A DNA stretch of 32,000 bases from Horticoccus luteus (GTDB lineage: Bacteria; Verrucomicrobiota; Verrucomicrobiia; Opitutales; Opitutaceae): the NCBI RefSeq assembly GCF_019464535.1, contig NZ_CP080507.1:990001-1022000 (forward strand), in the 5' to 3' direction. The notes under the pieces are model-generated. The model saw only the letters and a program-made list of their open reading frames with translations, was not told where the DNA came from and searched no databases. A program made the position numbers and the translations under genes. Positions 82 through 23,854 of this stretch are shown piece by piece; within the stretch, counting starts at the first letter, position 1; the number at the start of each line of letters is the position of its first letter.

Positions 82-513
82 CTAGCTTCGCGCACCGATC
101 CACACGCCAAGTATGACAAGAGCCACGCCCAGCCACTGATGGATCTGCACGCGTTCACCGAGAAGAAGTGGCGTGAGAGCCAGAGTTAGCACGATCGCCA
201 GACTCATGAAGGGGTAGGCAAAACTAAGATCAGCGCGCGAAACGGCGGCCATCCATGTGAGGGCAGCGGCCCCCGCACACGCAAGGCCGAGCACTACAAG
301 AGGATTACTGAGCGCTTGTATAAGATGAGCCGTCCATCCTTCAGCGCCGCTCCCGAAACTGCCGATCTTCATCATGCCTTTCTTGAGAAGAAGCTGGCCT
401 GAGACGGTGAAAAAAACGGTGAGGAGGATAAACCCAACCCCAGAGGCATTAGTCGACTTCACGTTAGACGATGAATTGCTGGATACATTCGATGACCCGC
501 GCCTGATCTTCAT
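82..513 (-). CDS. Small 4-TM membrane protein of the SMR/EamA (DMT) type, ArnE/ArnF-like polyprenyl-phosphate-aminosugar flippase subunit
   Basis: 143-aa hydrophobic ORF. Motifs TVSGQLLLKKG, FAYPFMSLAIVLT and WLGVALVILGVWIG line up with E. coli ArnE as recalled (SVAGQLCQKQA / IAYPMLSLNFVW / WCGVAFIIGGIVIL). It is the last gene of the long minus-strand operon. The true start may be the GTG at 462, 2 nt past the upstream stop. The ATG at 513 would overlap the aminotransferase by 50 nt. Confidence 0.6.
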   Translation of the reverse strand: MKIRRGSSNVSSNSSSNVKSTNASGVGFILLTVFFTVSGQLLLKKGMMKIGSFGSGAEGWTAHLIQALSNPLVVLGLACAGAAALTWMAAVSRADLSFAYPFMSLAIVLTLALTPLLLGERVQIHQWLGVALVILGVWIGARS

Positions 514-1600
514 CAGAAAGCGTATTGTAAAAAGGCAGGCGGACGAGACGGTCGCTGACGTCTTCGGTCACGGGGCATTGCCCTGGCTTGAAATCCCAGC
601 GGCGGGCGTATTCGGAGAGATGCAAGGGGAGATAGTGAAAGACAGCCGAAATTTGCCGCTCTTTAAGGTGGGCGAGGAATCGCGTTCGTGCTGCAGCTGT
701 GGGCATGAGGAGATAGTACATATGCCAGGCCTGTTCGCAATGTGGAGGAATGAAGGGACGTCGCACATCATTGTGGGCAGCCCAAGATGTGAGCGCTTCG
801 TCATAGCGAAGCCACTTGTCACGCCGGTTGCTTTGGATAGTATCCCAACATTGGAGTTGGCCGAATAAAAAGGCGGCGAGCACGTCGCTCATCACGTAAC
901 TACTGCCAATGTCCACCCACGAGTATTTATCGATCTGGCCGCGAAAGAATCTCGCTCGATTGGTGCCTTTCTCGCGAATGATTTCCGCACGCTCAATCAA
1001 TGCCCGATCGTTGATGAGAAGCGCGCCTCCTTCGCCGCAGGTGATGTTTTTCGTTTCGTGAAAACTTTGCGTCGCAAGATCGCCGAGGGTGCCCAGCCAG
1101 CGTCCGCGATAGCGGCCGAACAAACCGTGCGCGTTGTCTTCCACCACGGCGGCGCCGTGGTGACGCGCGAGAGCCAGCAAGGGGTCCATTTCGCACGCGA
1201 CGCCTGCGTAGTGCACCGGAACGAGCGCCTTGGTTTTTGACGAGAAGAGTGCACCGACTTTGCTTTCATCGATATTGAGCGTATCTGGCCGAATATCGCA
1301 AAAGACGGGCCGCGCTCCGCGGAGCACAAAGGCGTTGACCGTCGAGACAAACGTGAACGCCGGGATGATCACTTCGTCACCGGGTTGGAAGTCGAGCAAG
1401 AGGGCGGACATTTCCAACGCATGAGTGCATGAGGTGGTGACGAGGGCGCGGGGAATGCCCAAGGTGCCTTCGAGCAATTGCTGGCATCGCCGGGAAAAGG
1501 TCTGATCGCCGGCGATCTGTCCGCTCGAAATGGATTGGAAAATAAATTCTAGCTCCCGTCCTTGGAGCGAGGAGCGGTTGAACGGAACAGGGGCGTTCAT
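464..1600 (-). CDS. wecE: DegT/WecE-family PLP aminotransferase (dTDP-4-amino-4,6-dideoxygalactose transaminase-like)
   Basis: Near-colinear with E. coli WecE/RffA from memory: PFN..., RRCQQLLE, PAFTFVSTVNAFVLRGARPVF, VPVHYAGVACEMD, SFHETKNITCGEGG (PLP lysine), ALIERAEIIREKGTNR, FFRGQIDKYSWVDIGSSYVMSD, AVFHYLPLH. Start placed at ATG 1600 (MNAPVPFN...), which forms an ATGA overlap with the upstream stop at 1597. The track start at 1630 is a 5' extension. The nucleotide carrier of the substrate (dTDP vs GDP) cannot be read from sequence. Confidence 0.85.
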   Translation of the reverse strand: MNAPVPFNRSSLQGRELEFIFQSISSGQIAGDQTFSRRCQQLLEGTLGIPRALVTTSCTHALEMSALLLDFQPGDEVIIPAFTFVSTVNAFVLRGARPVFCDIRPDTLNIDESKVGALFSSKTKALVPVHYAGVACEMDPLLALARHHGAAVVEDNAHGLFGRYRGRWLGTLGDLATQSFHETKNITCGEGGALLINDRALIERAEIIREKGTNRARFFRGQIDKYSWVDIGSSYVMSDVLAAFLFGQLQCWDTIQSNRRDKWLRYDEALTSWAAHNDVRRPFIPPHCEQAWHMYYLLMPTAAARTRFLAHLKERQISAVFHYLPLHLSEYARRWDFKPGQCPVTEDVSDRLVRLPFYNTLSDEDQARVIECIQQFIV

Positions 1601-2304
1601 GGATTTGAAATCGAGTGCCAAAGCCAGCAACCGACGGGAGCGGAGAAGCGGGCTCCGAGTTGGGCGTAGATGTTCATAACAGGAGTATTACGCACACTAA
1701 AGGCAGCCTGCCCGACGGTGAACCCGTGGTCCGCATAAAATCGAAGCGCGCGATGATACAGATGGTGACCGGAAATGGTCGAGCCCGCGGCCAGCATGGC
1801 GAGAGCGAGATGCAGCCCTGCGTTGGTGGGTTCGGCGATAAACCAGCCCTGCACGCGTCCAGCAAAGATGATTTGAACGCAAGAAGCCGGACTGCGGGTA
1901 ATCACTTCGTTCGCCCAACGGCTATATCGTTCCGCGAGGCGCGCCTTGTCCGCTCCGGGTAGTTGTAAGAATCGCTCGTGTTCGAAGTGGCGCATTTCGC
2001 CCGCGTTTAGTTGCCAGGGATGGGTCTTTGCACTGTGGCATTCGAGAGGAGCTAGCGAGGGAGACTGGGGCAAACGGGACAGCGACAAGCGAAAGTTAAT
2101 TTGCACATCGACAAAGGCGAATCCGGCTCGGGCCAACAGGAACGGGGAGGGCGACTGGGTGAGTGCCGCCTTGTATTCGACCCAGCTAAATCGGCCCAGA
2201 TCGTGTCGACGTGCGATTTCCTCCTGGTCGAACCAGCGAGCGTCCTCCACGAGTCCCACCGGAGAGCCCCACCAAGCGGTATTTGTTTCGTGCAGTCTAA
2301 TCAC
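1597..2304 (-). CDS. GNAT-fold N-acyltransferase, WecD (dTDP-fucosamine acetyltransferase)-like
   Basis: Same two-domain layout as E. coli WecD as recalled: N-terminal ...TAWWGSPVG..., a central FEHERF... segment and a C-terminal ...GCWLWH matching ...TAYWLYR. It lies immediately upstream of the WecE-like gene, as in wecD-wecE pairs. Start re-assigned to the GTG at 2304, which forms a GTGA overlap with the LuxC-like stop at 2301. The track start at 2358 would overlap by 58 nt. Confidence 0.6.
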   Translation of the reverse strand: MIRLHETNTAWWGSPVGLVEDARWFDQEEIARRHDLGRFSWVEYKAALTQSPSPFLLARAGFAFVDVQINFRLSLSRLPQSPSLAPLECHSAKTHPWQLNAGEMRHFEHERFLQLPGADKARLAERYSRWANEVITRSPASCVQIIFAGRVQGWFIAEPTNAGLHLALAMLAAGSTISGHHLYHRALRFYADHGFTVGQAAFSVRNTPVMNIYAQLGARFSAPVGCWLWHSISNP

Positions 2305-3482
2305 GTGGCGATTTGGACTTCGTCGAAGAGTTGGCGCCAGAAATTCCCGCCGTCCCAAATCGGGCCAAAATGGTGCATCCGACGCAGGGGAACCCAGCGC
2401 TTTATGTCGGTTTGAGCGAGCAGGGCGATCCAGTGGGCAGCCGACGGATCACGTAAGTGATGGCCGACGGTTTGAATATTGGCCGGCAGCGACGCAACGG
2501 CGGCCTCGGGCGTGGCCGAGACGATGGCGAGACTCATCGCGCCCCGCAGAGGGTCTTGTTCGAGCGAGCCAGCTGCCAAAACTGCCGCATTTTGATCGAC
2601 TGTAATCGACTGCCAGCCGTCGGCGAGTGCGAGTTGGTGATGGAGCACGTTCTGCGAAGCGACATGCATCGGCGTTTGCTCGCGTTGGACGGAGGGCCAC
2701 CGGGCCGCGAGTGCATCGCGCAATCTTAGGCAATCGTCGTGCGTACCATCGATTACCACGACACGTCGCGGTGAGGTGCAGCCGGTTTGACCATAGATGG
2801 CGAACACACTGATAAGCGCGTCCACAGCGGCATCGTCCATTGCCGCGAGTTCCACCCACACTTCGGATTGATGGTCGCCGAAGGGGAGGGCGATGCTGTC
2901 GGGGCGATGAGGCAGAGCGTGAATCTCTGTGATGGACGCATCAGAACCGAAAGCGATGCGAACATCTGCTTCCGCGGCCATGGTGCGGTTTCGAGGATCA
3001 AATCGATCAAAATTTGCAACGGTCACCTGGTCGCTCAAATAATGCTGCAGGTCGGACTTCGATGGAAGCTGCCTCCGAGCATAGGTGACGAATGCCTGAC
3101 ATAAGTCCGTGGCCCGAGAGCCCGACTTCACGTGGATTTGCGCGCCGGTCAAGCTGCACAAGATGAGTGTTAACGGACCGAGCAGGCTGACATTATTGGG
3201 CAGCCAAAGGGCGATGGTTGGCCGGGGGCGGAAAAGCGAAACCAGCTGCTGGGGATCACCGCCCTGCCGGCCAAAGGATAGGAGAGCCGGGCGCGCGAGC
3301 TGATCGCCATGAAGGAAATTCACCAAATAGGCCCATTCGTCGCGCGTGAAGGCGGGATCGACCCTGCGAACCATGGTGTAGCGGAGACTCTCCCAATCCG
3401 AAATGCGAATCGACAGAGCGAAGGGGAGGGCGACGGCTACGGTGCCCGCCGAATTTTGGAAGTACTCCAAGTGATCACACAT
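2301..3482 (-). CDS. LuxC-family acyl-CoA/acyl-protein reductase (aldehyde-forming)
   Basis: 393 aa. Contains WLPNNVSLLGPLTLILCSLTGAQIHVKSGS and a YGQTGCTSPRRVVVI segment carrying the ALDH-superfamily catalytic Cys, typical of LuxC-like reductases. Overlaps the LuxE-like gene by 8 nt. Confidence 0.75.
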   Translation of the reverse strand: MCDHLEYFQNSAGTVAVALPFALSIRISDWESLRYTMVRRVDPAFTRDEWAYLVNFLHGDQLARPALLSFGRQGGDPQQLVSLFRPRPTIALWLPNNVSLLGPLTLILCSLTGAQIHVKSGSRATDLCQAFVTYARRQLPSKSDLQHYLSDQVTVANFDRFDPRNRTMAAEADVRIAFGSDASITEIHALPHRPDSIALPFGDHQSEVWVELAAMDDAAVDALISVFAIYGQTGCTSPRRVVVIDGTHDDCLRLRDALAARWPSVQREQTPMHVASQNVLHHQLALADGWQSITVDQNAAVLAAGSLEQDPLRGAMSLAIVSATPEAAVASLPANIQTVGHHLRDPSAAHWIALLAQTDIKRWVPLRRMHHFGPIWDGGNFWRQLFDEVQIAT

Positions 3483-4521
3483 TCGCGCACCCTCGAACTT
3501 CGGCTTTAGGAATTCTACCGTGTAAATCGAAATGCGGGCCGGCTCGGCCGCACGGGCATGGAGTCGAATGAAGCACCCCGATATCCTCCGTCAATACGTT
3601 GTGGTAGGGCGCTCCAAAGCTGAGGGTGTTCATCAACTGCAGCATGCCTGGCTTTTCTCGGACGCAATCGAGCGTCCATGGATCGCGCGTAAGGGCCAGC
3701 GCCCATCGCGGGATGTGGCGGTGACCGGCTGGACATAGGGGAAAGATGACGCCCACCTGTTCCACCAGTCCGTAAAAATCGAGCACTTGGGAATTAGGCG
3801 CACCGGTCGCGATCAGCCGGCGGTCGAAGGCCGCTCGGTCGACGGCCTGCGCCTCGAGTTTTTTCCAACCCCCGCTATGAACGAATTGGATCCGAGTGCG
3901 GGCGAGCACTTGGCGGACAGTATCGGGAATCTCCGCAGTGGCCCAAGTTTGCCATAGGAGCCACGTGAAGCCGTAGACGCGCACATGATCGTGTTGTGCG
4001 CACACCGCGGCAATTTGGTCCCACAAAAGGCGTGGACCGGCGGGATCTTCCGCCATCACGAAGTGCAACGCCGAAGCCAGAGGACGCAAACTCAACGCTG
4101 CCGCGATGCGGGCGCTGGTTTCTCCTCGCTGGAGAAGAGATTTTGCATGATCGAGTACGATCAACGGGCGCAACTCGCCACCCAACGCGTCCCGCAAGAT
4201 GCTGGAGCTGCTCGCGGCTTGGAGTGTGGAGCTACGTTCATCGAGCGAAATGCGACTGTTACCTGCGTTGGAGGTTGCGGAACTCTTGAGCACGCGTTGG
4301 TGCCGCACGCCGGCGCCGGCGGTCTGCCACAGCCTTTTTTTGAAGACTCCCACGTGAAGGAAGGGAAGATCTTCTACGCGTGTAGAGTTTTTCCAGTCCG
4401 GCCAAATCGCGCGGTAGCCAGGACATCCGTCGATATGCCACTGCGTGAGCGCATTCATCTCCGCTAAAAAAGCGGCGTCGTCGCGTTCCGAAAAAGGGGG
4501 AAAGTGGAGAAGCTCACTCAT
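3475..4521 (-). CDS. LuxE-family acyl-protein synthetase (ATP-dependent carboxylate activation)
   Basis: Colinear with recalled Vibrio LuxE landmarks. LPFLHVGVFKK matches IPVFPTSMFK. VHSGGWKK matches ITGGGWK. IPRWALALTRDPWTL matches PPWVYARALDPETL. VLTEDIG matches IVTDDIG. The C-terminal RGCA matches KGCA. Start set to ATG 4521 (MSELLHFPPF...), an ATGA overlap with the Fe-ADH stop at 4518. The track start at 4611 would overlap by 94 nt. Confidence 0.75.
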   Translation of the reverse strand: MSELLHFPPFSERDDAAFLAEMNALTQWHIDGCPGYRAIWPDWKNSTRVEDLPFLHVGVFKKRLWQTAGAGVRHQRVLKSSATSNAGNSRISLDERSSTLQAASSSSILRDALGGELRPLIVLDHAKSLLQRGETSARIAAALSLRPLASALHFVMAEDPAGPRLLWDQIAAVCAQHDHVRVYGFTWLLWQTWATAEIPDTVRQVLARTRIQFVHSGGWKKLEAQAVDRAAFDRRLIATGAPNSQVLDFYGLVEQVGVIFPLCPAGHRHIPRWALALTRDPWTLDCVREKPGMLQLMNTLSFGAPYHNVLTEDIGVLHSTPCPCGRAGPHFDLHGRIPKAEVRGCANV

Positions 4522-5438
4522 GGGGTGAACTCGAGGAAGAATTCCCGATCGGCCGGACGAACCATACTGCAATTCGTCCGCGAGCAGCGGTCGCGAATGA
4601 CTGACGTCCAATGATCGGCCAGGAAGGGAAGGAGCGTGGCATAAGCCGGCGGGTCGAAAAACTCCCTCAGGCGGGTGTCGATAGAATCAAGGGTAATGAA
4701 ATGCTGGGCCAGCAACTCGCCAGGCTTGGTGCTCGTCGTGCGATTGAATCGAAAGACAGGGAGGAGAAATGTCGCACAGAGCTTCGCGTGTCCCCATGAG
4801 GGATCGCGGAGCATTGGTTCCAAGGTATGTGCAAGGCCATGAATCAACCCGACGCTCGAGCGCGCTTGTCCCGCGGCGGCAAGCGCGCTGACGTGAAACC
4901 ATTCGGGGTGGTGAGCGAGGGGTAATACGAGGAGGCGCCGAAGCAAATCGGCGAGGTCTTGCCGCAGTTCTTGCGAAGCAAGAGGGGAAAGAAAGCCCTC
5001 GAGCGCGTGGGCCCAAGTGTCTCCGCAAGCGGCGAAAATTCTATCGCCGGGTAGACTGACGGCAAGTTCAGGATGTTCGATGATAAGATCGGGCCGCAGC
5101 CGAGAATTGAGGTAAATGCGCTTATGATTCGCCTCGTTCACCACTGCAATCGGCGACGCTTCGGCGCCGCTGCCCCAGATCGTGGGCAGCGCAGCCAGTT
5201 TCCCCGCCGGGTAGGTCTGACGAAACAGCTTAGCCTCGTCGATCATGGTGCCGCCGCCGGCCACAACGAGCCAGCCGCCCTCTTGCAAAAATGCCGGCCG
5301 GTCGATTAACGGCCATAGTCGCTGATCGGCCAGCTTGCCGCGAACGGACGGGGTTGCCCAGAGTGCCGCCGCCGCACCGATCGAAGATCGAGCTTCCGCG
5401 AGCGTGCAACGCGGAGGAAGTTCAATCATCGAACGCAA
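4518..5438 (-). CDS. Iron-containing (group III) alcohol dehydrogenase family protein, short form
   Basis: Carries the GGGTMIDEAKLF nucleotide-binding motif, the metal-ligand region ACGDTWAHALEGF and the histidine motif GLIHGLAHTLEP. At 306 aa it is shorter than typical ~380-aa family members (N-terminal part missing). The start is uncertain within the first 4 codons. Confidence 0.75.
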   Translation of the reverse strand: MRSMIELPPRCTLAEARSSIGAAAALWATPSVRGKLADQRLWPLIDRPAFLQEGGWLVVAGGGTMIDEAKLFRQTYPAGKLAALPTIWGSGAEASPIAVVNEANHKRIYLNSRLRPDLIIEHPELAVSLPGDRIFAACGDTWAHALEGFLSPLASQELRQDLADLLRRLLVLPLAHHPEWFHVSALAAAGQARSSVGLIHGLAHTLEPMLRDPSWGHAKLCATFLLPVFRFNRTTSTKPGELLAQHFITLDSIDTRLREFFDPPAYATLLPFLADHWTSVIRDRCSRTNCSMVRPADREFFLEFTP

Positions 5439-5667
5439 TACCCTTAGAGCTAAGGATGGTCATGACGTGCTGCACGCCGGTGATGCTGTTAGCCTCGTCC
5501 GGGCTGAAATGGTAACCGAAAATTTGCTGCACACCGACAGCCAGAGCCACGACACCCAATGAGTCCCACGTCTCCACCTCGTCACGCCGCAAATCGAAAC
5601 GAAATTCGTCAGGCGAAAGGAGAAAGACATCTTGGATCAAGGCGCGGAGTTTTTCGCGATTGGACAT
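5422..5667 (-). CDS. Acyl carrier protein
   Basis: 81 aa with the phosphopantetheine attachment motif ETWDSLGVVALAV. The Ser codon lies at 5560..5562. Sits between the AMP-ligase and Fe-ADH genes. Confidence 0.85.
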   Translation of the reverse strand: MSNREKLRALIQDVFLLSPDEFRFDLRRDEVETWDSLGVVALAVGVQQIFGYHFSPDEANSITGVQHVMTILSSKGIAFDD

Positions 5668-5671
5668 GTGA

Positions 5672-6853
5672 TTAGGCTAATTGCCGCCAGACGACGGCTT
5701 TTCCGGCCAAATCCGTCAAGGCTCTGATATCCGTTTTCCCATTCGGCAACAGCGGCAGGGCAGAGAGCGTCTCAATGCGCAATGGCCAATGGGCTCGCGG
5801 GTGCTTGCGCCGCAAAGCGAGGAGGACTCCGTTGATTGCTTCGCGGGTCGCGAGGGGAGTGAGGACTAACACGCACCCATCTTCTCCGGTCGGATCTCTT
5901 TCGCGATAAAATGCGCATTGACCAGACCACGGAGCGGAGACGGTCGCGAGCAAAGCGAGCAGGGAGACCTTTTCGCCATGTCGTTTGAAAATGTCGTTAC
6001 CCCGGCCAAGGAGTCGCCATGCGCCGTCACCGTCTTGCGCAGCCAAATCTCCCGTGGGGAGCCATTCGTCGGGTTGAATTTCACGGCAGACCTGATTCTC
6101 GATGAGAGCAATGGCGCGGTAAGGACTGCGGAAGAAGAGCCGATCTGCGCCGTCAGTTTGAAGTTCTACGCCCGGCAGCGGCTGGCCAATGTTAGCGGGA
6201 TCGGCAGCCGCTTCGGCGGATCGCAACGCGAGTCGCGGCATGGCTTCGGCACAGCCGTAGTTGTTGTAAACGCGAGCTTCGGGGAACAGTCGCTTGAGCT
6301 GGGGTAGCTGTTCTTGGGGGAAGCGGCCTCCTGCGAAGTGAATGCGCCAAACACCTGGAAAAGTCTCAGTGGGAAATGCGTTCACAAGGAGCGGTACCTG
6401 CACGCCCACCAGGCAAAGCATAGCCTGATGTGCCGCACGGAGGTTTTCGCGGAGGGCATGAGGATCTGCCAAGCCCCGCGTAGGGACAAGCCGGCGCCTA
6501 AATTGCCGGGCCCAGAGCCACTGGTTCACAAAAGAGTAGCTATAAGAGAGCGGGAGGAGAAGAAGCGTTTCCTCGACCACATCGCTCGATTGCAGGTGGT
6601 GGAGGATGGCGACGAGGGCATCGGCGCGCCGACGTTCGCCAATGACGAGCTTCGGAGAGCCGGTACTTCCGGAGGTCAGCAGGATGAAATGCCATTCCCG
6701 CAAGTGCGGGGGCAGCGTCGCTGCACAGTCGGCGAGCCATTGGTCGTCGACGCTCAGTTTGGCCGAGACAAGAACGAAGGTCGCGGGGAGCGTCCATGCG
6801 CGTTCAAGAGCTTGCAGGTCGAAACTAGGCGTATCCTCGCGCAGGATCTTCAT
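5672..6853 (-). CDS. AMP-dependent synthetase/ligase (short adenylating enzyme, probable acyl-ACP ligase)
   Basis: AMP-binding signature LLTSGSTGSPKLV, plus YGCAE, LPTGDL, GRGNDIFKRHGEKVS and LPNGKTD. At 393 aa it is shorter than classic acyl-CoA synthetases. ATGA overlap with the GT2 stop at 6850. Confidence 0.85.
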   Translation of the reverse strand: MKILREDTPSFDLQALERAWTLPATFVLVSAKLSVDDQWLADCAATLPPHLREWHFILLTSGSTGSPKLVIGERRRADALVAILHHLQSSDVVEETLLLLPLSYSYSFVNQWLWARQFRRRLVPTRGLADPHALRENLRAAHQAMLCLVGVQVPLLVNAFPTETFPGVWRIHFAGGRFPQEQLPQLKRLFPEARVYNNYGCAEAMPRLALRSAEAAADPANIGQPLPGVELQTDGADRLFFRSPYRAIALIENQVCREIQPDEWLPTGDLAAQDGDGAWRLLGRGNDIFKRHGEKVSLLALLATVSAPWSGQCAFYRERDPTGEDGCVLVLTPLATREAINGVLLALRRKHPRAHWPLRIETLSALPLLPNGKTDIRALTDLAGKAVVWRQLA

Positions 6854-7875
6854 AATGAGCGAGGCAGTTGCTCAGAAGAAACGTGGCCCCGAATCGTATA
6901 CGCCGGTTTTTCCATAATGCGGAAATGCATCCGCGCGAGGTATTCGCCAATAACCCCGAGGGCAAAAAGCTGGACCCCAGCAAACATGGCTATGATGGAA
7001 GCGAGAAATGGGAACCCGGCGACCGCGCTGCCGAAGAGCATGTAACGGCCGACCACATAAGCCAGTACGGTGATGCCGAGAGCGGTGAAGGCGAAGCCCA
7101 TCATGCTGGCGAATTGAAGCGGCAGGACCGAAAAGCCCGTGGTCATGTTCAGTGCATGGCGCACGAGCTTTCCGAAAGTGTAATTCGATTTACCTTCAAA
7201 GCGTGGAGCATGGAGCACCTGCACCGAAGTGAAGCGAGTAGTGGCCCAAGTGAGCAGGACATCGATGGAGACGGTCGGGCTGCCGTAGTTTGCGAACGCC
7301 TGCCGCAGGTCGGTCCGAAAAACACGGAAGGCGCTTGTTTGCGCGGCGGTTTTGGCTCCCATGGCGCTCCGCAGGGCGAGTTTGGTGATAAGAGAGGCCA
7401 GATCGCGGAAGAGACCGTGTTGTTCTCGTGCGGGAGTGCCATAGACTACGTCGACGTCCTCCTCCAGCGCGGCCAAGAGCTTGTCGATTTCCGTCGGCGG
7501 ATGTTGTAGATCGTCATCCAGAGTGACGGTGACGTTGTAGCGCGCGTTCCGAAGGCCCGCGAGAAGTGCGTTATGTTGCCCGTAGTTTCGAAACAGGCAA
7601 ATCCCTCGCAGCCATGGGCGACCGGCCGCTAGTTCCGTGATGATGCTCCAGCTCGCATCATGGCTGCCGTCATTTACCAAAATCACTTCGAATGGCGTTT
7701 TCGCCTGCAGGAACGCCTGTTCGACGGCATCCACGAGCATAGGCAACGTTTTCGCGCTGTTGTAAACGGGGACGATGATGGAGTGACCAGCTGTGGTCGT
7801 TGCCCCGGTGCTCGATGCGGCATTCATGATGCTAAGTTGGCAAAACCTCATTTGGAGAGAGAGCGCACAAGCCAA
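6850..7875 (-). CDS. GT2 polyprenyl-phosphate glycosyltransferase (ArnC / GtrB / DPM1-like)
   Basis: Contains SIIVPVYNSAKTL, VILVNDGSHD, FRNYGQHNALLAGL and LDDDLQHPP, plus two C-terminal TM helices ending in GVIGEYLARM, the hallmark of ArnC/GtrB-type enzymes. The true start is probably ATG 7827 (MNAASS...) rather than 7875. Confidence 0.85.
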   Translation of the reverse strand: MACALSLQMRFCQLSIMNAASSTGATTTAGHSIIVPVYNSAKTLPMLVDAVEQAFLQAKTPFEVILVNDGSHDASWSIITELAAGRPWLRGICLFRNYGQHNALLAGLRNARYNVTVTLDDDLQHPPTEIDKLLAALEEDVDVVYGTPAREQHGLFRDLASLITKLALRSAMGAKTAAQTSAFRVFRTDLRQAFANYGSPTVSIDVLLTWATTRFTSVQVLHAPRFEGKSNYTFGKLVRHALNMTTGFSVLPLQFASMMGFAFTALGITVLAYVVGRYMLFGSAVAGFPFLASIIAMFAGVQLFALGVIGEYLARMHFRIMEKPAYTIRGHVSSEQLPRSL

Positions 7876-7876
7876 T

Positions 7877-9760
7877 TTAGCGTTCTCGCCCTGCAGGGGA
7901 CGCCAGTGCGTAATAGCGAGCGAGAGGGCGAAGGGGCGGCCGCACGGCTGGCTGCGAGGATTTCAAGCGGAGGGTCCCCCCTTCGACGGCAGCTGTCCCC
8001 TGCCAGCGCGTCCACCCGGTCGCGGTTCGCTCCAATACGATCACGTTGCCATCCTGGGGCTGCTGTTCGGCGGATTTTGGAAGCATGAAATAGTCGGTCG
8101 GCTTCCATTGAAAATGCCCGTCACGGAGGCTGATGGTTTCGGCGAGCGTGGGCGCGCACAGGATCACAGACGGCGGAATTTGTAGCGGAGATCGCGCGGG
8201 CCGGTCGCTCGCTGAAGCGACAACGGCGTTGTAGTCGTAAAGCGCGCCCGGGGTGATTTCAGAGGTCCAACTGAAGCAATCGGTGTAGCGAAAGTGTGGT
8301 AATTTGCGATCGACCACGACGACGAAGGTGCGCTCGCCGGCATCTTCGCAGAGTTGGTCAAAAGCGCGCCAAAACGTCTTTTGGAAGCGCCAGACCCCGC
8401 AGTAATCCTGTTGCACGATCGACCCAAATGCCGCCAACGACCCAAGCGTTGCGCCCAGCAGTATCCGCAGGGCGAACTGCGCACCTCGCCAATTGACAAG
8501 AGTCATTCGGTCCACGGCAAAGCCGATGCACAAAGCACCTCCTGCGCTGGGCACGCAATGCAATCCTGACATGAAGCCCGTGCTCCATGTGCCGGGGAAC
8601 CAAGGGGCCCGAAAGAAAGAGGCGTAGGCACCCGCCAACACGAGCGCACCGGCGACGAATACCCGCCAAGACCCAAGCTTAACTGCGGCGCCGTTGGGCG
8701 CAGTCGGAACTTGCACGGGCGACGAGTTCTTGGGCCGAATTAGGCGATGGCCGAACTGGAATAAAAGAGTGACAGCGCTCCCAACCGCGAGAAAAACCAC
8801 GACGGACTCACCGCTAACATGATGCCACGGCACCATGATTCTTTCTCCAATGAGTTTAAATTGGGTGACCGTGCCGGTCCCTGCGGCCATCAACGCCCGC
8901 CGTGCGACTTCCGCCGGGTGTCCGAACAATTCTCCGACCCGTTCTTGCCCCCAAGGATCGCCAATTCGAACGCGCAATACCAGGACTGTGGCAACGGACC
9001 CGATCCAGAGAAGAATTGTCCGCAACGGATATCCCATCCACTGTCGTTTCCGCCATTCGAGAGTTAATGCAAACGGCAGGAGTAGCGCCGCAACACTTGC
9101 TGGTTCGCCCATCAATGTCGTCACGACCACTCCGGCTACATACCAAAGCCATCGGCCGTGAATCGCTGCGAATGCGCTAAGTAATGCGCAAAGCAACGAT
9201 ATTTGTGTATTATACGCAAAAACAAGCTGTGCCTGTACAACGGCGACGGGCGCAAGTGCGTAGAACGCAGCGACGCCATAGACGCCGGCGAGAGAGAGAA
9301 ATCGGTTCGACAACCGTGCCAAAAGGTAACCGTTGGTGGCAAAAACAACTAATCCGAAGAGATGCAGGGCGAGCAGGCCGCCCGACTTTCCCACCAAGTA
9401 GGGTAGCAGGCTGAGATTGAGCCCCATCCCCAGAGGCCGTCCTTGAGGCCATTTTGTGAAACAAAAATTAACCCAAGCCCATTCCTCACCCCAAGGGCGG
9501 TTAAGCGCAGTGCCAATAAATGCGACGTCGTCGCCGTATAGACCAAAACCGGCGACATGAGTGAAATACCCGGCCCAGGCAATAAGCGCTGTGAAGACCC
9601 AAAGTGGCCAACCTATAACTTGACCGGCACACACGAGGGGCCGCAATTTTTGGAGCATTTTTTGTCCTGAAGCGTTGCCCGTAGCGGACATCGTAAATGG
9701 CGTTGGAGGGACTAAGGTGCGTCGCTTAACGCGCTGAGCTGCGTTGCGGCCAGCCGACAT
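7877..9760 (-). CDS. Polytopic membrane protein, GT-C-like (ArnT/PMT-style) glycosyltransferase candidate with a C-terminal soluble domain
   Basis: About 11-12 predicted TM helices in the first ~440 aa. An acidic motif (LYGDDVAFIG) sits in the first extracytoplasmic loop, as in GT-C enzymes. A ~170-190 aa non-hydrophobic C-terminal domain follows. It lies directly upstream of an ArnC-like GT2. I recognise no specific family. Alternative starts at ATG 9691 or 9658 would remove the 35-nt overlap with the methyltransferase gene. Confidence 0.5.
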   Translation of the reverse strand: MSAGRNAAQRVKRRTLVPPTPFTMSATGNASGQKMLQKLRPLVCAGQVIGWPLWVFTALIAWAGYFTHVAGFGLYGDDVAFIGTALNRPWGEEWAWVNFCFTKWPQGRPLGMGLNLSLLPYLVGKSGGLLALHLFGLVVFATNGYLLARLSNRFLSLAGVYGVAAFYALAPVAVVQAQLVFAYNTQISLLCALLSAFAAIHGRWLWYVAGVVVTTLMGEPASVAALLLPFALTLEWRKRQWMGYPLRTILLWIGSVATVLVLRVRIGDPWGQERVGELFGHPAEVARRALMAAGTGTVTQFKLIGERIMVPWHHVSGESVVVFLAVGSAVTLLFQFGHRLIRPKNSSPVQVPTAPNGAAVKLGSWRVFVAGALVLAGAYASFFRAPWFPGTWSTGFMSGLHCVPSAGGALCIGFAVDRMTLVNWRGAQFALRILLGATLGSLAAFGSIVQQDYCGVWRFQKTFWRAFDQLCEDAGERTFVVVVDRKLPHFRYTDCFSWTSEITPGALYDYNAVVASASDRPARSPLQIPPSVILCAPTLAETISLRDGHFQWKPTDYFMLPKSAEQQPQDGNVIVLERTATGWTRWQGTAAVEGGTLRLKSSQPAVRPPLRPLARYYALASPAGRER

Positions 9761-10475
9761 TTATCGAAAATGGCCGTCCGAATTCCGAATAGTCGTCTTT
9801 CGTTATCGGTTTCCAATTGGAGTCGTAGGCTTGTTGCGACATGACGTAGCAATTCGCGTCGTTTTGGATGGTGCTGATTGCTGTTTCGAGAGTGTCGGCT
9901 GAAATCTGGGAATAGAGATACGGGACCAAACCGTTGATCCAGGACGTCCCGCCGGGGCGGAGAATGGCGTCGAAGCAGTGGAGCGAGTAGCCACCTGGCT
10001 TCAGGACCCGATTCATGTCTTTGAGGATATTCTCCCGGATGGTCGGGTCTTCCGGAGTGTGCTCGAGCGCAGAAATGGAAAACACGAAATCGAAGTAGCC
10101 GTCCGACAGCTCGGGACTGAACGAGCCCATGTAGTCGTAAACGATGCGATAGTCGGGCGAGATAAATTTCGTCGGGCCATTACCGAGACCCTCGCATTTG
10201 TCCGCGTTCCAGCATTCGTAATCACGAGAGAGGAATCGCAGAACACGGCTGTCGCCGCCGCCAACTTCCAGGAGGCGTGATCCCGGCGGTACATTATTGC
10301 GGATGAAAAGATATACGAGATAGTCCTGATAGACTTTCAGGTCGCAAATCGTGGGATCCGGATCGCCGACGTTGTAGGACTGAAAGGGTAGATCGCGGAA
10401 GAGTTCGAAGTGGGACAGCTTCGAAAATGAGAATTCGGCGAGATTGCCGGGATGCGGCCATTGCGGATTGTTCAT
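9726..10475 (-). CDS. Class I SAM-dependent methyltransferase
   Basis: Motif I RLLEVGGGDSRVL, acidic post-I residue (WNAD), FDFVFSISALEH and LKPGGYSLHCF. ATGA overlap with the upstream glycosyltransferase stop (10472..10475). Confidence 0.8.
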   Translation of the reverse strand: MNNPQWPHPGNLAEFSFSKLSHFELFRDLPFQSYNVGDPDPTICDLKVYQDYLVYLFIRNNVPPGSRLLEVGGGDSRVLRFLSRDYECWNADKCEGLGNGPTKFISPDYRIVYDYMGSFSPELSDGYFDFVFSISALEHTPEDPTIRENILKDMNRVLKPGGYSLHCFDAILRPGGTSWINGLVPYLYSQISADTLETAISTIQNDANCYVMSQQAYDSNWKPITKDDYSEFGRPFSINVGWPQRSSAR

Positions 10476-11536
10476 GTCGAAGAAACGGCGCGGCTCTCAT
10501 TGGCGCTGGCTTGGGCGAGGGCGCGCGTGGCAGCGAGGAGTTGGCGGCGCTTGTCGGCGACCTCGCGTTCGAGTTCGTGCAGGCGGCGATCCTTGCGCAG
10601 GAGTTCGGCGCGAGCGTGGCCGAGTTTGCCCTCGGGCGAGAGAACCTGCTCGACCCACCACGTTTGGTGCAACGACTCCAGAAAACGGAGAAAGAAGATG
10701 ATGTCGTCGACGACCGGATTCGGTTCGAGGGGAATCGTTTCGTGCGGCGGGATCCGGAGAGGTGCGACGGGGAGATTAGCCATCGGGCTCTCGAAATTCG
10801 TATGCGTGGCCTCCGGCCCGTAGCCGAGGTTGGAGATAAGATTTCGGCCCGGCATGACGTGACAGGCGCCGGCTCTCCAAGAATGAAAAAAGACTTGGAA
10901 ATCCCACGTGTCGAAGACTCCGGCTTTGAGCGCACGGTAGACTTCGCGCCAATAGGCCGCCTGCACTGGGTTCGCGTGAGTGCGCTCCAAGACCGACCAC
11001 CAACCCGCTTCGTCAAGTTCGTCCAGGGAGTGCGAATACGTGGTCCAGGTGCGGCGCCATGTGGCCCAGCCCCACATCTGGAAATATTTGGAAACGTAGT
11101 GGCTTTGCGTGCAGGCAAATTCGGGAGGGAGAAAATGAGTGCCCGCGATCGTCGCCACGCGGGGTTCAAAACGATAACGTTGAAGAAGTGTTTCGCAGTA
11201 AGAGAAAAAGTCCGGGTGCGGAAGACAGTCGTCCTCCAAGATGATGCCTTCCTCGACGTGGCTGAAAAACCAGGAGATGGCCTCGCTGACCGCTCGCCCG
11301 CAGCCCGCATTGTGATCGCGAAACAGGTACTTCACTTCGCACGGCCAGTCTATGTCGGCGATGATTGCGCGCGTGGCTTTGACCAAGTCAGCTTCGCCTG
11401 CTTTGTCGTCGCGGGCGCCATCAGCGGCGACAAATAGTTGCCGCGGCTGCTGGGCACGAATGGAGGCAAAGACCTGCCGCGTAGGTGCCGGGCGGTTGAA
11501 GATGATGAAAAGGATTGGCGTGCTGAACTCCGACAT
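10472..11536 (-). CDS. GT-A fold nucleotide-diphospho-sugar glycosyltransferase (GnT-I/GT2-like) with a C-terminal coiled-coil tail
   Basis: The N-terminus PILFIIFNRPAPTRQVF...LFVAADGARDD and the motif GIILEDDCLPHPDFF are typical of this GT-A group. The last ~60 aa (AELLRKDRRLHELEREVADKRRQLLAATRAL) are heptad-like and charged. Confidence 0.6.
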   Translation of the reverse strand: MSEFSTPILFIIFNRPAPTRQVFASIRAQQPRQLFVAADGARDDKAGEADLVKATRAIIADIDWPCEVKYLFRDHNAGCGRAVSEAISWFFSHVEEGIILEDDCLPHPDFFSYCETLLQRYRFEPRVATIAGTHFLPPEFACTQSHYVSKYFQMWGWATWRRTWTTYSHSLDELDEAGWWSVLERTHANPVQAAYWREVYRALKAGVFDTWDFQVFFHSWRAGACHVMPGRNLISNLGYGPEATHTNFESPMANLPVAPLRIPPHETIPLEPNPVVDDIIFFLRFLESLHQTWWVEQVLSPEGKLGHARAELLRKDRRLHELEREVADKRRQLLAATRALAQASANESRAVSST

Positions 11537-11610
11537 GAGCCGCTTTCACTCCAAGAAGCGGGTCCGGTGAATGCAAGCGGCTTCAATCGAACGTGCAGCC
11601 GGCAGCCAAC

Positions 11611-13566
11611 TTATCCGCGCAGCCACGCCCGCAGTCGGTTGAAGACGCTTAGTGCAGAGGGAGCAGGAGGTGCCGACCACGCGAGTAAGAGGGCGACGGG
11701 GCGGCCGAAGTCGTCGTAAGGCCGCTTAGTCACCGCGGCCCATTGCAGATCGTACGCTTTGCGGCTCATAGTATAGAGATCCGGATCTGCCAAAAGCGAA
11801 TCCAGCTCCCATGAAGCTAATCCGAAGGCGTCGCGAAGAAAGGCGGCGGCGGGACCTGTCCAAAAATAGTCCGGATGAATGACGGCTGTTGCGCCATGAA
11901 GATTGAGGCCGCCGGGTTTGATGTGTCGTTTCAAACGCGCGACCAAGCAGGCCAGTTGTTCCGCCGTCGTCACTTGGTCGAGCCACGATCCGCTGAGGAT
12001 CGCGTCAAATTTCTCGGGGACGCCGGATGAAGGGGTGGCGGCACCGAGTGCTTCGATCGCGTGGAAGTTTTCGCGATCAACAAGCCAGTCGTTGGTGTTG
12101 GCGGGATGCCACAAACGGTGCCCGCGATTCAACAGGTGCGTCCAGTGGCCGGCCGCGTCGTCAAGAATAAGGAAATCGCCGGGCGTGCGCGTCGCAGTCA
12201 GCGCGCCCGTGGCAACCGCGGCGCGCAAAAATACCCCGAGCTCGATTTCTTCCAGGGATGGCAGGGCCATCCCCTGAGCCACCGCCCACCCGTGATGACG
12301 ATTGCGAAGATGAACCAAGGCGAGAGGTGCGGGCGTATCATTTGCTGGCGAAGGGCGCGTCCAAGGCGACGTCGCAAAGGGCTCGATACGTTCGAGCCAG
12401 CCAGGAGGAAACGTTTCGGGAGGAAACGCAGCATGGAAAGGGGCCGGTGCTGACGTGCCTTTGGCGAGCGATGACCAAATCCATTCGCCGGCGTCAGGAA
12501 GCACCAAAGCCGGCGACCAATGGCGGATCGCTTGCTGGATTTTTCGGCGAACGGCGGCGTTCGTGAGCGCCTGAATCGTTTGGATCAGTGCGTGCGGTTG
12601 ATAGGCGCAGCATTGGCCCGTGCCCAAGCGGCAAAGAAAGCGGCCGGCGGCTGTATCGGGACTGCCGAGTAGCAACACGGGCGTATCGGTGGCCGTGTGG
12701 AGGAAGACCAACCGGGACGGCAGGCTTAAATGAGAAAACGCGGGGTTATCATCGTGTTGATCAAGGCTGCCGGAGGGGACGACGATGAAAGGATAGGAGG
12801 CGAGCGCCGCGATGAGATCTTCTTCGGGGAGGAATCCCATGGTGCGAATGTGGTCGACCTCCCATTCTTCGGGCGCGCCGGTCAGCCAGGGGGCTTGGGT
12901 TCCGTTGCCATACCAATCGATATGCAGCCCCGTGGCGCGCGTGAGCTCGCGCAATTGATCGAACCGCGCGGCCGTCCAGACGTTCCCCAGCATGGCCGCG
13001 CGCAGCGGCTCGCCAGGCTCAGTTTCCCAATAGCAGGGGATGAGTGGAACCGCTTTTGTGACGACGGGGGGCAGCAACTCCAGCGGATACGAGAAACGCC
13101 GAGCGTAGGCAGCGCAGAGTTCGGGTGAGATACCCAGCCGCAAGTCGGAGGAGGCGAGTAACCGAGCAGGCCAGTGCGCGGGCACCTGCGGCGTGAAGAC
13201 GGTCTGGTCATCCATGATGAACGTGCAGAGCGGCGCTCCGGTGAGTTCTTTTGCCAGGATGCCGTGAATGAAATCCTCCCGATAGTAAGGCACGCAAAGA
13301 ATGCGCCGGATGCGGCGGCCAGCGAGAAGGTCGGCGAGCCGGCTTCGCGTGTCAGGGACGGTCCGAAACTGCGAACGCAGCTCCCAGTGCTCTTGGCCAA
13401 AGGATTCCTGGCCGCCGTAGAGTGAGCGGGAACGAAGGGTGATGATGCCGGAAGAGTCCGGAAAAAACCGTTGGAGAAGAATGCCAACGCCGTGATGGTT
13501 GTTTACCTCGACGGCGCTGATGAGCAGGTCAGGCGAGTCCATTACAGCGCGGGGCGCAATGGACAC
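11611..13566 (-). CDS. Two-domain protein: N-terminal GT-B-like glycosyltransferase candidate fused to a C-terminal methyltransferase-like domain
   Basis: The segment aa ~240-305 (FLPEEDLIAALASYPFIVVPS...LPSRLVFLHTATDTPVLLLGS) resembles the C-terminal Rossmann half of GT4-type enzymes. The segment aa ~420-632 is paralogous to the 9726..10475 methyltransferase. PGDFLILDDAAGH aligns with PGSRLLEVGGGDS. IKPGGLNLHG aligns with LKPGGYSLHC. YTMSRKAYDLQWAAVTKRPYDDFGRP aligns with YVMSQQAYDSNWKPITKDDYSEFGRP. Confidence 0.5.
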   Translation of the reverse strand: MSIAPRAVMDSPDLLISAVEVNNHHGVGILLQRFFPDSSGIITLRSRSLYGGQESFGQEHWELRSQFRTVPDTRSRLADLLAGRRIRRILCVPYYREDFIHGILAKELTGAPLCTFIMDDQTVFTPQVPAHWPARLLASSDLRLGISPELCAAYARRFSYPLELLPPVVTKAVPLIPCYWETEPGEPLRAAMLGNVWTAARFDQLRELTRATGLHIDWYGNGTQAPWLTGAPEEWEVDHIRTMGFLPEEDLIAALASYPFIVVPSGSLDQHDDNPAFSHLSLPSRLVFLHTATDTPVLLLGSPDTAAGRFLCRLGTGQCCAYQPHALIQTIQALTNAAVRRKIQQAIRHWSPALVLPDAGEWIWSSLAKGTSAPAPFHAAFPPETFPPGWLERIEPFATSPWTRPSPANDTPAPLALVHLRNRHHGWAVAQGMALPSLEEIELGVFLRAAVATGALTATRTPGDFLILDDAAGHWTHLLNRGHRLWHPANTNDWLVDRENFHAIEALGAATPSSGVPEKFDAILSGSWLDQVTTAEQLACLVARLKRHIKPGGLNLHGATAVIHPDYFWTGPAAAFLRDAFGLASWELDSLLADPDLYTMSRKAYDLQWAAVTKRPYDDFGRPVALLLAWSAPPAPSALSVFNRLRAWLRG

Positions 13567-13569
13567 GCT

Positions 13570-15060: not shown

Positions 15061-15178
15061 TTGCGGTGCAGCACTACAGCGGATTACGGAAAGTAAAGCA
15101 GGCCTTTTCGAAGGAGAAGTTGGGGGCAGAATTGGAATCAGCCTTGGCCAGACCGGGCCGAGGCGTTTAAGTTGCGCG
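15061..15178. promoter_or_regulatory. Divergent intergenic region that must carry the promoter(s) for the 15060->82 minus-strand operon and for the plus-strand acyltransferase
   Basis: 118-nt gap between divergently oriented start codons (15060 minus, 15179 plus). Only weak sigma70-like hexamers are seen (TTGGCC - 17 nt - TTAAGT, ending 8 nt before the ATG). No confident -35/-10 assignment. Confidence 0.4.
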
Positions 15179-15745: not shown

Positions 15746-15748
15746 GCT

Positions 15749-16903: not shown

Positions 16904-16926
16904 GGTGTGCGAACGGTGAAAGACAT

Positions 16927-18321: not shown

Positions 18322-18393
18322 GTGAGGATGGCGCTTTCGCGGTGCATGTTGCGCTGTCGTGGGATGATGCCCGCCCTACGCCCAGGCTTTACG

Positions 18394-19245: not shown

Positions 19246-19255
19246 GGGCGACGAT

Positions 19256-21219: not shown

Positions 21220-21358
21220 CAGGGCAGATAAGCCGCGCGAAATTCGACGGTCAACCTCCACCTCGGCGCGCCCGTCGCGGCGGACAAGGTGGCGGGCGGG
21301 CGCGGGGGGCTTTGGGCTTGCCACGACTCGGCCGGGTCGCGTGGCTACGAGTTTACGT
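21220..21358. promoter_or_regulatory. Divergent intergenic region between the glycan operon (minus) and the efflux operon (plus); promoters expected
   Basis: ~139 nt between the re-assigned start codons 21219 (minus) and 21359 (plus). Contains a G-rich tract at 21294..21316. No confident promoter hexamers identified. Confidence 0.4.
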
Positions 21359-23838: not shown

Positions 23839-23854
23839 ACAGGCGCATCGTCGC

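Follow-up and report, generated by a model that had tools for sequence, protein, structure and literature searches.

A candidate three-component glycosylation system with a carrier-protein acyl cassette in the Opitutaceae bacterium Horticoccus luteus

The stretch of DNA analysed here (the window, 32 kb) comes from Horticoccus luteus (Opitutaceae, Verrucomicrobiota) and carries, at 82..9760, a module of ten genes that all lie on the minus strand (Table 1). They encode a polytopic membrane protein resembling glycosyltransferases of fold C (GT-C), a family 2 glycosyltransferase (GT2) of the ArnC/GtrB type, five proteins of an acyl carrier protein (ACP) cassette, a GCN5-related N-acetyltransferase-type protein (GNAT), a WecE-type sugar aminotransferase and a small EamA-type membrane protein. 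On balance, we favour the view that these genes form a three-component periplasmic glycosylation system that follows the logic of the Gtr and Arn systems and whose donor sugar would carry an unusual N-acyl group.

Gene content and organization of the locus

Each of the ten genes received a significant family assignment from Pfam, NCBIfam or structure matches, in agreement with a first-pass annotation that had placed them on the minus strand. That annotation had also described a tightly coupled operon starting at the GT-C gene. The coupling stands for the run from GT2 through EamA: read from the DNA and the open reading frame (ORF) coordinates, there are ATGA overlaps at GT2/AMP-ligase, Fe-ADH/LuxE and GNAT/WecE, a GTGA overlap at LuxC/GNAT, 8-nucleotide (nt) overlaps at ACP/Fe-ADH and LuxE/LuxC, and gaps of 4 nt at AMP-ligase/ACP and 1 nt at WecE/EamA (Fe-ADH denotes the iron-containing alcohol dehydrogenase-like reductase). 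These junctions, each an overlap or gap of at most 8 nt, point to translational coupling. The unit does not begin at the GT-C gene, however; same-strand genes (a methyltransferase, two glycosyltransferase genes and an ORF of 651 amino acids (aa)) continue upstream to about 15060, and the transcription unit starts at least that far upstream. Promoter and terminator scans stayed at background level. In an Opitutaceae metagenome-assembled genome, the EamA gene is the final one and a convergent gene comes next.

Some gene starts needed small corrections. The small membrane gene, first drawn as 82..513, has a GTG start at 462, and its product is identical to that of NCBI; the transaminase start, ATG at 1600, was upheld. 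For the LuxE-like gene (ORF 3475..4611), the NCBI product has 327 aa, whereas more than 100 of the closest homologues have 344–349 aa and align from ATG 4521, which overlaps the Fe-ADH stop codon. This ATG, giving the homologues' length, is most likely the start, and the deposited start probably lies too far downstream. The GNAT (253 or 235 aa) most likely starts at GTG 2304.

Table 1 Genes of the module and the gene directly upstream of it
Feature	Position	Strand	Match or remark
GT-C-like polytopic membrane protein	7877..9691 or 7877..9760	minus	604 aa from the NCBI start; 627 aa from ATG 9760
ArnC/GtrB-type GT2	6850..7875	minus	start at 7875, 7851 or 7827
Adenylate-forming ligase, short AMP-binding enzyme (AMP-ligase)	5672..6853	minus	PF00501, 2.9e-16
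Acyl carrier protein, 81 aa	5422..5667	minus	WDSLG phosphopantetheine-attachment motif
Iron-containing alcohol dehydrogenase-like reductase (Fe-ADH)	4518..5438	minus	PF00465, 3.5e-08
LuxE-like acyl-protein synthetase, 348 aa from ATG 4521	3475..4521	minus	PF04443, 5.4e-37
LuxC-like acyl reductase	2301..3482	minus	PF05893, 8.3e-16
Divergent WecD-like GNAT, 235 aa from GTG 2304	1597..2304	minus	NCBIfam WecD, E 3.4e-3
WecE-type dTDP-4-keto-6-deoxyhexose 4-aminotransferase	464..1600	minus	NCBIfam NF008687, 537.9 bits
Single EamA/DMT (drug/metabolite transporter) half-transporter with four transmembrane helices, 126 aa, ArnE/F-like	82..462	minus	PF00892, 7.2e-09
Class I SAM (S-adenosylmethionine) methyltransferase, directly upstream of the GT-C gene	9726..10475	minus	PF08241, 9.1e-08

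The large membrane protein is 100% identical to NCBI K0B96_03950 and has no Pfam, NCBIfam or PDB sequence match, phmmer and profile searches of the PDB included. It has about ten or more transmembrane (TM) helices and a C-terminal beta-rich domain (residues ~456–604). A word-indexed search returned five relatives, whereas an exhaustive profile search returned 976 representative clusters, 461 of them below 1e-30 and nearly all 550–620 aa long, giving a family of ~1,000 clusters at 50% identity. Across an alignment of 109 sequences, G50, Y52, E196, H378 and Q427 are invariant and D54/D55 nearly so (at least 90%). A GLYxDD motif (FGLYGDD at residues 48–55) directly follows the first TM helix (TM1, ~19–43), and two short helices (54–64 and 67–80) also come after TM1; an acidic motif at this place is the catalytic hallmark of GT-C enzymes.

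The 109 sequences yielded an AlphaFold2 model of high confidence (predicted local distance difference test (pLDDT) 90.8; predicted template-modelling score (pTM) 0.91) with a helical membrane core and the C-terminal beta-rich domain; a model from only five sequences (pLDDT 52.5) was not used for inference. The best Foldseek match in the PDB was ALG9 (E 6.7e-4), with STT3, AglB, ArnT, DPY19 and ALG12 at probabilities of 0.97–1.0 (ArnT 5f15 at 0.99) and further matches to PIGU and EmbB. Every PDB match at a probability of about 0.8 or more was a GT-C enzyme or the GT-C-like PIGU, and transporters and other non-GT-C proteins stayed below 0.3. The GT-C fold suggested at first pass for the 627-aa protein is thus supported by structure prediction: the polytopic core, the acidic motif in the first extracytoplasmic loop and a distant likeness to solved GT-C structures are all present. 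Sequence membership in a catalogued GT-C family (PMT_2, YfhO, ArnT and others) was not found, with CAZy family GT136 outside the comparison. Given the low template-modelling scores (TM-scores) and the lack of a sequence-profile link to PMT_2, the protein is best described, from its model, as belonging to a distant, uncatalogued GT-C-like family. We propose that it is a periplasmic transferase that uses a polyprenyl-phosphate-sugar donor; no other GT-C candidate was found in the window.

The GT2 matches the ArnC structure 8vxh over its full length (4.8e-41; residues 30–338), and its residues 27–338 align to 24–336 of the 341-aa GtrB 5ekp (1.7e-37). It reaches 174.1 bits against the NCBIfam ArnC cut-off of 529, and its translation contains a DDDLQ motif and two C-terminal hydrophobic (TM) helices. 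By these sequence features, it is a predicted polyprenyl-phosphate glycosyltransferase. The transaminase passes two WecE models, NF008687 (cut-off 375; residues 15–387 cover positions 2–374 of 375) and TIGR02379 (496.7 bits; cut-off 434.85). It was rejected as an ArnB, with 222.9 bits against the NF008658 cut-off of 631. Because the WecE equivalog is passed and the ArnB model failed, the sugar is expected to be a thymidine diphosphate (dTDP)-linked 4-amino-4,6-dideoxyhexose. Amination of the LuxC aldehyde by this enzyme was also ruled out, because it passes a sugar-transaminase equivalog and Fe-ADH is present to take the aldehyde.

The EamA protein had been likened to ArnE/F, and these are its nearest named relatives, although both scores fall below the cut-offs (ArnF, 44.1 bits against 99, 2.4e-11; ArnE, 35 against 92, 1.3e-08). 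Its homologues lie with GT2, WecE and GT-C genes in two loci (L014 and L018; loci are given by number), with GT2 and WecE in L016 and directly after WecE on the short contig L013. The accompanying GT2 and WecE proteins are orthologues of those in the window (364–416 and 522–562 bits, respectively), a variable N-acyltransferase and a methyltransferase are also found, and the GT-C partner is PMT_2, YfhO or a member of the new family (L014; hhalign 98.5%). These modules often adjoin Wzm/Wzt or RmlA/RmlB. On the strength of these gene contexts, with GT2, WecE, N-acyltransferase and GT-C neighbours, we reject a drug-efflux transporter of the small multidrug resistance type, in keeping with the original assignment. 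We propose the EamA protein as a putative flippase for a polyprenyl-phosphate-linked sugar.

Between the GT2 and GNAT genes, all five cassette enzymes (AMP-ligase, ACP, Fe-ADH, LuxE and LuxC) are present and contiguous. Among the best NCBIfam matches of the AMP-ligase is the adenylate-forming 2-oxoglutaryl-ACP ligase AmcH (5.9e-18); the ACP has weak NCBIfam ACP matches (1e-3) and a DSL motif read in translation, and Fe-ADH matches NCBIfam models of the 4-hydroxybutyrate dehydrogenase and lactaldehyde reductase type. The GNAT has no Pfam match. By BLASTP it matches (7e-6) the canonical WecD-like protein that takes its place in L001, and a profile of 33 GNAT homologues aligns to three WecD-like proteins over 214 columns (hhalign 95.6%, E 1.1e-8); against the WecD equivalog NF008212, it reaches 17.2 bits, below the cut-off of 219. 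These comparisons point to a distant but real WecD homologue of the two-domain type. The canonical acetyl-coenzyme A (CoA) binding motif was not found in the GNAT: the pyrophosphate-binding motif Q/R-x-x-G-x-G/A (QGRGLGAQL in the WecD-like protein of L001) is replaced by STISGHHLY. Because this motif is replaced, the GNAT would fit a donor other than CoA, and we propose that it is an acyl-ACP:dTDP-4-amino-4,6-dideoxyhexose N-acyltransferase.

The module lies at the end of a polysaccharide cluster. From 21324 downwards, the minus strand carries a gmd paralogue, a true gmd, wzm, wzt (with a Wzt_C domain) and a Per/DesI-like transaminase gene (15749..16903). Below a plus-strand gene at 15047..15745 follow a GT2 with a coiled coil, the 651-aa ORF (11611..13566; no family match), a second glycosyltransferase with a coiled coil, the methyltransferase and the ten module genes. 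The plus-strand gene encodes a hexapeptide-repeat acetyltransferase (WbbJ/NeuD-like) that is inverted within the minus-strand cluster, tail-to-tail with the Per/DesI-like transaminase and head-to-head with the GT2/coiled-coil gene, the start of which it overlaps by 14 nt. With this gene in between, the cluster probably consists of two transcription units; the gene product may N- or O-acetylate a backbone sugar. The tandem pair at 19256..21324 (minus strand) belongs to the GDP-mannose dehydratase family: one member exceeds the gmd equivalog cut-off (520.9 against 415) and the other, which falls below it (324.2), may encode an Rmd-like reductase of GDP-4-keto-6-deoxymannose or be some other paralogue. 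With a Wzt that has a carbohydrate-binding Wzt_C domain and two glycosyltransferases with C-terminal coiled coils, the backbone genes (9726..15060, minus strand) resemble a chain-terminating ATP-binding cassette (ABC)-transporter O-antigen system.

The methyltransferase upstream of the GT-C gene scores 398–418 bits against orthologues in L001, L002 and L100, although only contigs of the L002 type have it next to the GT-C gene; as a neighbour it is conserved, and its membership in the module is uncertain. To the right of the polysaccharide cluster on the plus strand lie a TolC/MacB/ABC-type efflux operon (21191..25794) and a set comprising cytochrome c7, a 1127-aa Fe-S protein and NrfD that resembles an alternative complex III-type module (26156..31676), both unrelated to the finding.

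Relatives of the module in genomes and metagenomes

Close relatives of the large protein (35–43% identity) occur in L001, L002–L005, L099 and L100, and in all of them, as in the window, the GT-C gene lies immediately upstream of a GT2 gene. In L001, L099 and L100 the order is GT-C, ArnC-like GT2, WecD-type GNAT and WecE; L100, from a complete Opitutaceae genome (CP023344.1), has rmlB/rmlD-type genes nearby. In L002–L005, by contrast, the WecD-like gene is reduced to N- and C-terminal fragments and a formyltransferase gene follows WecE, itself followed in L003 by an IS110-type transposase fragment (7587..7769). Judged by eye, the formyltransferase sequence in this part of L002 (the region 6131..8576) looks AT-rich. 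L002 and L003 look like a swap of the N-acyl group caught in the act. Because relatives have an acetyl-type GNAT or a decayed GNAT with a formyltransferase, and the window has the ACP cassette, the acyl step is the variable element of a conserved module. The first-pass annotation had proposed that the formyl step of Arn was exchanged for another acylation and that the flanking genes belong together; the formyltransferase beside a decayed GNAT in L002 fits an exchangeable acyl step, and co-occurrence was observed among both the close GT-C relatives and the metagenome cassette loci.

The GT2 in the window scores only 129–142 bits against the GT2s beside three of the four close GT-C relatives compared and 434 bits, the orthologue type, against that of L099. 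It belongs to a widespread orthologue group that travels with WecE and EamA (337–440 bits). This grouping suggests, from sequence comparison, that the whole GT2-to-EamA block replaced a simpler GT2–WecD–WecE block downstream of a conserved GT-C. The close GT-C subfamily also shares the backbone genes GT354 and methyltransferase in L002 and L100. Elsewhere, the orthologous GT2/WecE/EamA trio is accompanied by other N-acyltransferases and by GT-Cs of other families.

Some observations concern the surroundings of GT-C relatives only. A 581-aa neighbour of the GT-C in L100 was considered as a paralogue and is not one. In the same genome, 7 kb upstream of the GT-C homologue, a predicted fusion of GtrA_DPMS_TM with a ribulose-phosphate 3-epimerase domain (2055..3128) is followed by genes for a His_Phos protein, a 2',5'-RNA-ligase-like protein and an NTP-transferase, a region that could be a second lipid-linked sugar route. 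A contig profile search with a shallow alignment of the large protein gave six loci. Distant family members in SAR324 and Anaerolineae (L012, 7527..13869; L010, 7402..9036) adjoin other large membrane proteins, namely a PMT_2–TPR (tetratricopeptide repeat) fusion and ORFs of 544 and 774 aa without family match; these settings hint at multi-GT-C loci.

More than 1,500 homologues of the LuxE-like protein were found, with identities of 54–63% for the best of them. Our survey of the cassette covered 80 metagenome loci, 37 with room for a gene after LuxC and 25 of at least 10 kb. The order AMP-ligase, ACP, Fe-ADH, LuxE, LuxC, GNAT recurs: of the 80 loci, 46 have AMP-ligase ahead of ACP (most others being contigs too short to include it), the position of ACP is conserved, Fe-ADH is found in 72, LuxC follows LuxE in 75, and the GNAT is the next gene after LuxC in 28 of the 37 loci with room. 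WecE is present in 21 of the 80 loci and DegT_Per-type partners are present in 5. GT2 orthologues (at least 300 bits) occur in 14, or in 8 of the 25 long loci. L031 encodes an EamA orthologue (120 bits) and L054 a weak EamA-like match only (28 bits). PMT_2 GT-Cs lie beside a unit of GT2, WecE, cassette and GNAT in L087 and L091, and near the unit in L064. The cassette abounds in metagenomes of soil and peat, from Acidobacteriota, Verrucomicrobiota and other groups. Judging from these contexts, it appears to serve N-acylation in general, with routing through a lipid carrier in only some cases.

A proposed pathway and its alternatives

We propose the following route. With keto-sugar supplied by RmlA and RmlB, presumably encoded outside the window, WecE would convert dTDP-4-keto-6-deoxy-D-glucose to dTDP-4-amino-4,6-dideoxyhexose. 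In parallel, the AMP-ligase would load a small acid, probably dicarboxylic or hydroxy-dicarboxylic, on the dedicated ACP; the LuxE-like enzyme would activate the free distal carboxyl, the LuxC-like enzyme would reduce it to the aldehyde and Fe-ADH would take the aldehyde to the alcohol. The expected product is an omega-hydroxyacyl-ACP, which by analogy with Vibrio cholerae O1 might be of the 2,4-dihydroxybutanoyl type. Tetronate-type chemistry is proposed because the enzyme set is that of V. cholerae O1 RfbK, RfbL, WbeM and WbeN, and a tetronate-like acyl group is accordingly a tentative assignment by analogy, which we think somewhat more doubtful than probable. The divergent WecD-like GNAT would then move the acyl group from ACP to the 4-amino group, the GT2 would load the N-acylated sugar onto polyprenyl (undecaprenyl) phosphate, the single EamA protein, probably as a homodimer, would flip the lipid-linked sugar and the GT-C-like protein would pass it to an acceptor in the periplasm. 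As no deacylase is present, the acyl group would be a permanent decoration, unlike a protecting group that is later removed. Of the possible acceptors, the most likely is the ABC-exported O-polysaccharide for which the upstream genes provide synthesis and export (gmd, the per-like transaminase, the glycosyltransferases and Wzm/Wzt), because the module lies in that operon, related modules adjoin Wzm/Wzt and the GT-C subfamily co-occurs with the same backbone genes (L002 and L100). We regard the chances that this polymer is the acceptor as evenly balanced.

Several points weigh against this pathway. Every functional step is drawn from homology, predicted structure and synteny. For the GT-C-like protein, the Foldseek E-values are marginal (6.7e-4 to ~0.1) and the TM-scores low (0.25–0.37); a sequence link to GT-C families was not found, the profile search of the PDB was empty, hhalign against four PMT_2 sequences gave a probability of 5% and only 2 of 60 family members made weak contact with PMT_2 in Pfam. 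Distant family members (L008–L012) have no adjacent ArnC-like GT2, and their neighbourhoods are uninformative. Characterized ArnC-family enzymes use UDP- or GDP-sugars, so that a dTDP donor for the GT2 is an assumption, and rmlA and rmlB were not found in the window. About two thirds of the long cassette loci lack a GT2 orthologue, which implies that the cassette also serves cytoplasmic routes. Finally, the Per/DesI-like transaminase gives the window a second amino-sugar route that could in principle receive the acyl group.

This last point is the core of one alternative, in which the cassette acylates GDP-perosamine from the upstream Per-like transaminase, as in backbone acylation of the V. 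cholerae O1 type, while GT2, EamA and GT-C handle a different sugar or are functionally separate. The cluster does have gmd, a Per/DesI-like transaminase and Wzm/Wzt, like the wbe region of V. cholerae O1, its cassette equals RfbK, RfbL, WbeM and WbeN in composition and many cassette loci have no GT2. However, the WecD-like GNAT directly follows the cassette both in the window and in 28 of the 37 metagenome loci, often with WecE next, and sits where relatives have a canonical WecD beside WecE; a separate hexapeptide acetyltransferase adjoins the Per-like gene, and DegT_Per-type partners (5 of 80 loci) are outnumbered by WecE (21 of 80). We therefore consider this alternative highly improbable. 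An Arn-type modification, with an ArnT-like GT-C placing the sugar on a lipid A phosphate or the inner core and altering charge or permeability, draws on the presence of ArnT (5f15) among the structural neighbours and on the GT2 and EamA proteins being nearest to ArnC and ArnE/F among named families. It is nevertheless rather unlikely: Arn, FlmK and Lgm-type modifications of lipid A serve to add positive charge, and an N-acylated sugar without a deacylase adds none. The transaminase is a WecE and not an ArnB, the module lies inside an O-polysaccharide operon with Wzm/Wzt (which homologous modules adjoin in L014 and L027) and the close GT-C subfamily accompanies the backbone genes GT354 and methyltransferase in L002 and L100. 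The first-pass annotation had named lipid A, the core or the exported polymer as possible targets; of these, the co-encoded O-polysaccharide is likely and lipid A less so.

Another improbable reading gives the 604-aa protein a role other than transfer from this donor, as a polymerase- or ligase-like enzyme or a GT-C for another lipid-linked donor, with the sugar used by a GT-C encoded elsewhere or passed to a protein acceptor as in PMT-like O-glycosylation. The distant fold similarity (TM 0.25–0.37), the occurrence of distant family members without a neighbouring ArnC-like GT2 and the pairing of the GT2/WecE/EamA trio with PMT_2 or YfhO GT-Cs in other loci would fit such a role. Against it, in all five close-subfamily contexts the gene lies immediately upstream of an ArnC-like GT2, followed by an N-acyltransferase and WecE; the protein has the acidic motif after TM1, and the window holds no further GT-C candidate.

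Returning to the three-component system, a broader reading, which could equally hold or fail, joins these observations. The locus would represent a widespread, undescribed class of three-component systems in which a conserved GT2/WecE/EamA trio would make and flip polyprenyl-phosphate-linked 4-acylamido-4,6-dideoxyhexoses, with both the N-acyl group and the GT-C swappable. The N-acyl options would be formyl, acetyl, groups from other acyltransferase types and a tetronate-type hydroxyacyl built on a dedicated ACP. The Opitutaceae transferase would stand as founding example for a large GT-C family that lacks both a Pfam model and a characterized member, and its donor would be the first known lipid-monophosphate sugar with a carrier-protein-derived acyl group. 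If true, the repertoire of polyprenyl-phosphate donors, so far simple hexoses, pentofuranoses, 4-amino-4-deoxy-L-arabinose (L-Ara4N, or Ara4N) and (N-acetyl)hexosamines, would gain a 6-deoxy amino sugar with a tailored hydroxyacyl group, and a large family of ~600-aa membrane proteins that is blank in domain databases would gain a testable function. It would also account for a six-gene ACP cassette found in abundance in metagenomes of soil and peat, the only studied analogue of which, to our knowledge, is the V. cholerae O1 tetronate pathway, itself not known to have been reconstituted. O-antigen side-chain chemistry would then diversify by the swap of one sub-module, and the enzymes would provide parts for glycoengineering.

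Comparison with known systems

The Arn pathway comprises ArnB, ArnA, ArnC, ArnD, ArnE/F and ArnT and places L-Ara4N on lipid A. The steps proposed here follow the same logic (amination, N-acylation, loading on undecaprenyl phosphate, flipping and transfer by a GT-C), GT2 and EamA are nearest to ArnC and ArnF/E, and ArnT is a structural neighbour of the GT-C. No protein of the module reaches an Arn equivalog cut-off, however: the large protein, for one, has no PMT/PMT_2 match that would make it an ArnT, and no gene of 82..21324 has a formyltransferase or deacetylase family match as expected of ArnA and ArnD. The sugar would be a 6-deoxyhexose of the WecE type, the acyl group would not be removed, there is one flippase-type gene in place of a heterodimer pair and the likely acceptor is O-polysaccharide. 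The earlier description of four Arn roles thus captures the logic but not the sugar, which is of the WecE and not the ArnB/L-Ara4N type; the system is Arn-like in logic, is not an Arn pathway and is better filed with the Gtr-type three-component systems.

For the acyl cassette, the closest precedent is V. cholerae O1, in which RfbK (ACP), RfbL/WbeL (AMP-ligase), WbeM (Fe-ADH) and WbeN (a LuxC+LuxE fusion) are needed for tetronate on perosamine (PMC3441752, PMC12208996, PMC9915646; the tetronate genes are those of Morona et al. 1995, as cited in these papers). Matched by enzyme type from the literature, the five enzyme types occur here in nearly the same order and likewise in an ABC-transporter O-antigen locus. 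The product in V. cholerae is an N-(3-deoxy-L-glycero-tetronyl) amino sugar. By contrast, LuxE and LuxC are separate genes in H. luteus, the acyltransferase is a WecD-like GNAT coupled to WecE and not to perosamine, and the product would be routed to a polyprenyl-phosphate carrier. In Aeromonas and Enterobacteriaceae, flagellin glycosylation islands have also been described to contain sets of ACP, AMP-ligase, LuxE and LuxC, to which no function was assigned (PMC7874193, PMC4875605). These too are carrier-protein acyl cassettes with LuxE and LuxC in glycan loci, but they have FabG-type reductases instead of Fe-ADH, accompany flagellin glycans based on pseudaminic acid and show no linkage to genes for a polyprenyl-phosphate GT2, a flippase or a GT-C.

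Region 3 of the Xanthomonas campestris wxc cluster (wxcK to wxcO) directs a branch of N-acetylated amino-fucose (FucNAc) on a D-rhamnan O-antigen, and mutants lose the branch (PMC4878081). There, much as proposed here, a dTDP-derived N-acetyl amino-6-deoxyhexose branches from a gmd-dependent, Wzm/Wzt-exported polymer, and a transaminase (wxcK) and a small membrane protein (wxcN) are required. In genetic terms, it is a precedent for a side chain of amino-6-deoxyhexose whose formation depends on a small membrane protein. The Xanthomonas system uses plain acetyl and has no ACP cassette; its sugar is a 3-amino sugar, and its small protein is GtrA-like.

No account of a system that uses a polyprenyl-phosphate-linked N-acyl 4-amino-4,6-dideoxyhexose emerged from a literature search, within a searchable literature that is incomplete. 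The first-pass statement that no pathway with this combination is described therefore stands as far as that search goes, with the qualification that the acyl cassette has the V. cholerae O1 tetronate precedent. Three-component modification of ABC-exported O-polysaccharides is established, with galactose in Klebsiella O2 and pentofuranose (GT136) in Citrobacter youngae (PMC11127046). Like the Gtr systems of Shigella and Salmonella (GtrA/GtrB/Gtr*), Klebsiella O2 and C. youngae, the module encodes together a predicted donor synthase (a GT2 of the GtrB/ArnC/DPMS type that ends in TM helices), a small membrane protein as candidate flippase and, adjoining the GT2, a transferase with a predicted GT-C fold, and it too lies within an O-polysaccharide locus that uses Wzm/Wzt. 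It differs in that the donor would be an N-acylated 4-amino-4,6-dideoxyhexose from a dTDP-sugar instead of glucose, galactose or pentofuranose, the candidate flippase is an EamA/ArnE-F-type half-transporter instead of GtrA or a MATE (multidrug and toxin extrusion) protein, the GT-C comes from a family without a Pfam model and seven tailoring genes (WecE, GNAT and the five cassette genes) are embedded. The novelty would lie in a new donor class, a new GT-C family and an ACP-built acyl group within a known three-component mechanism.

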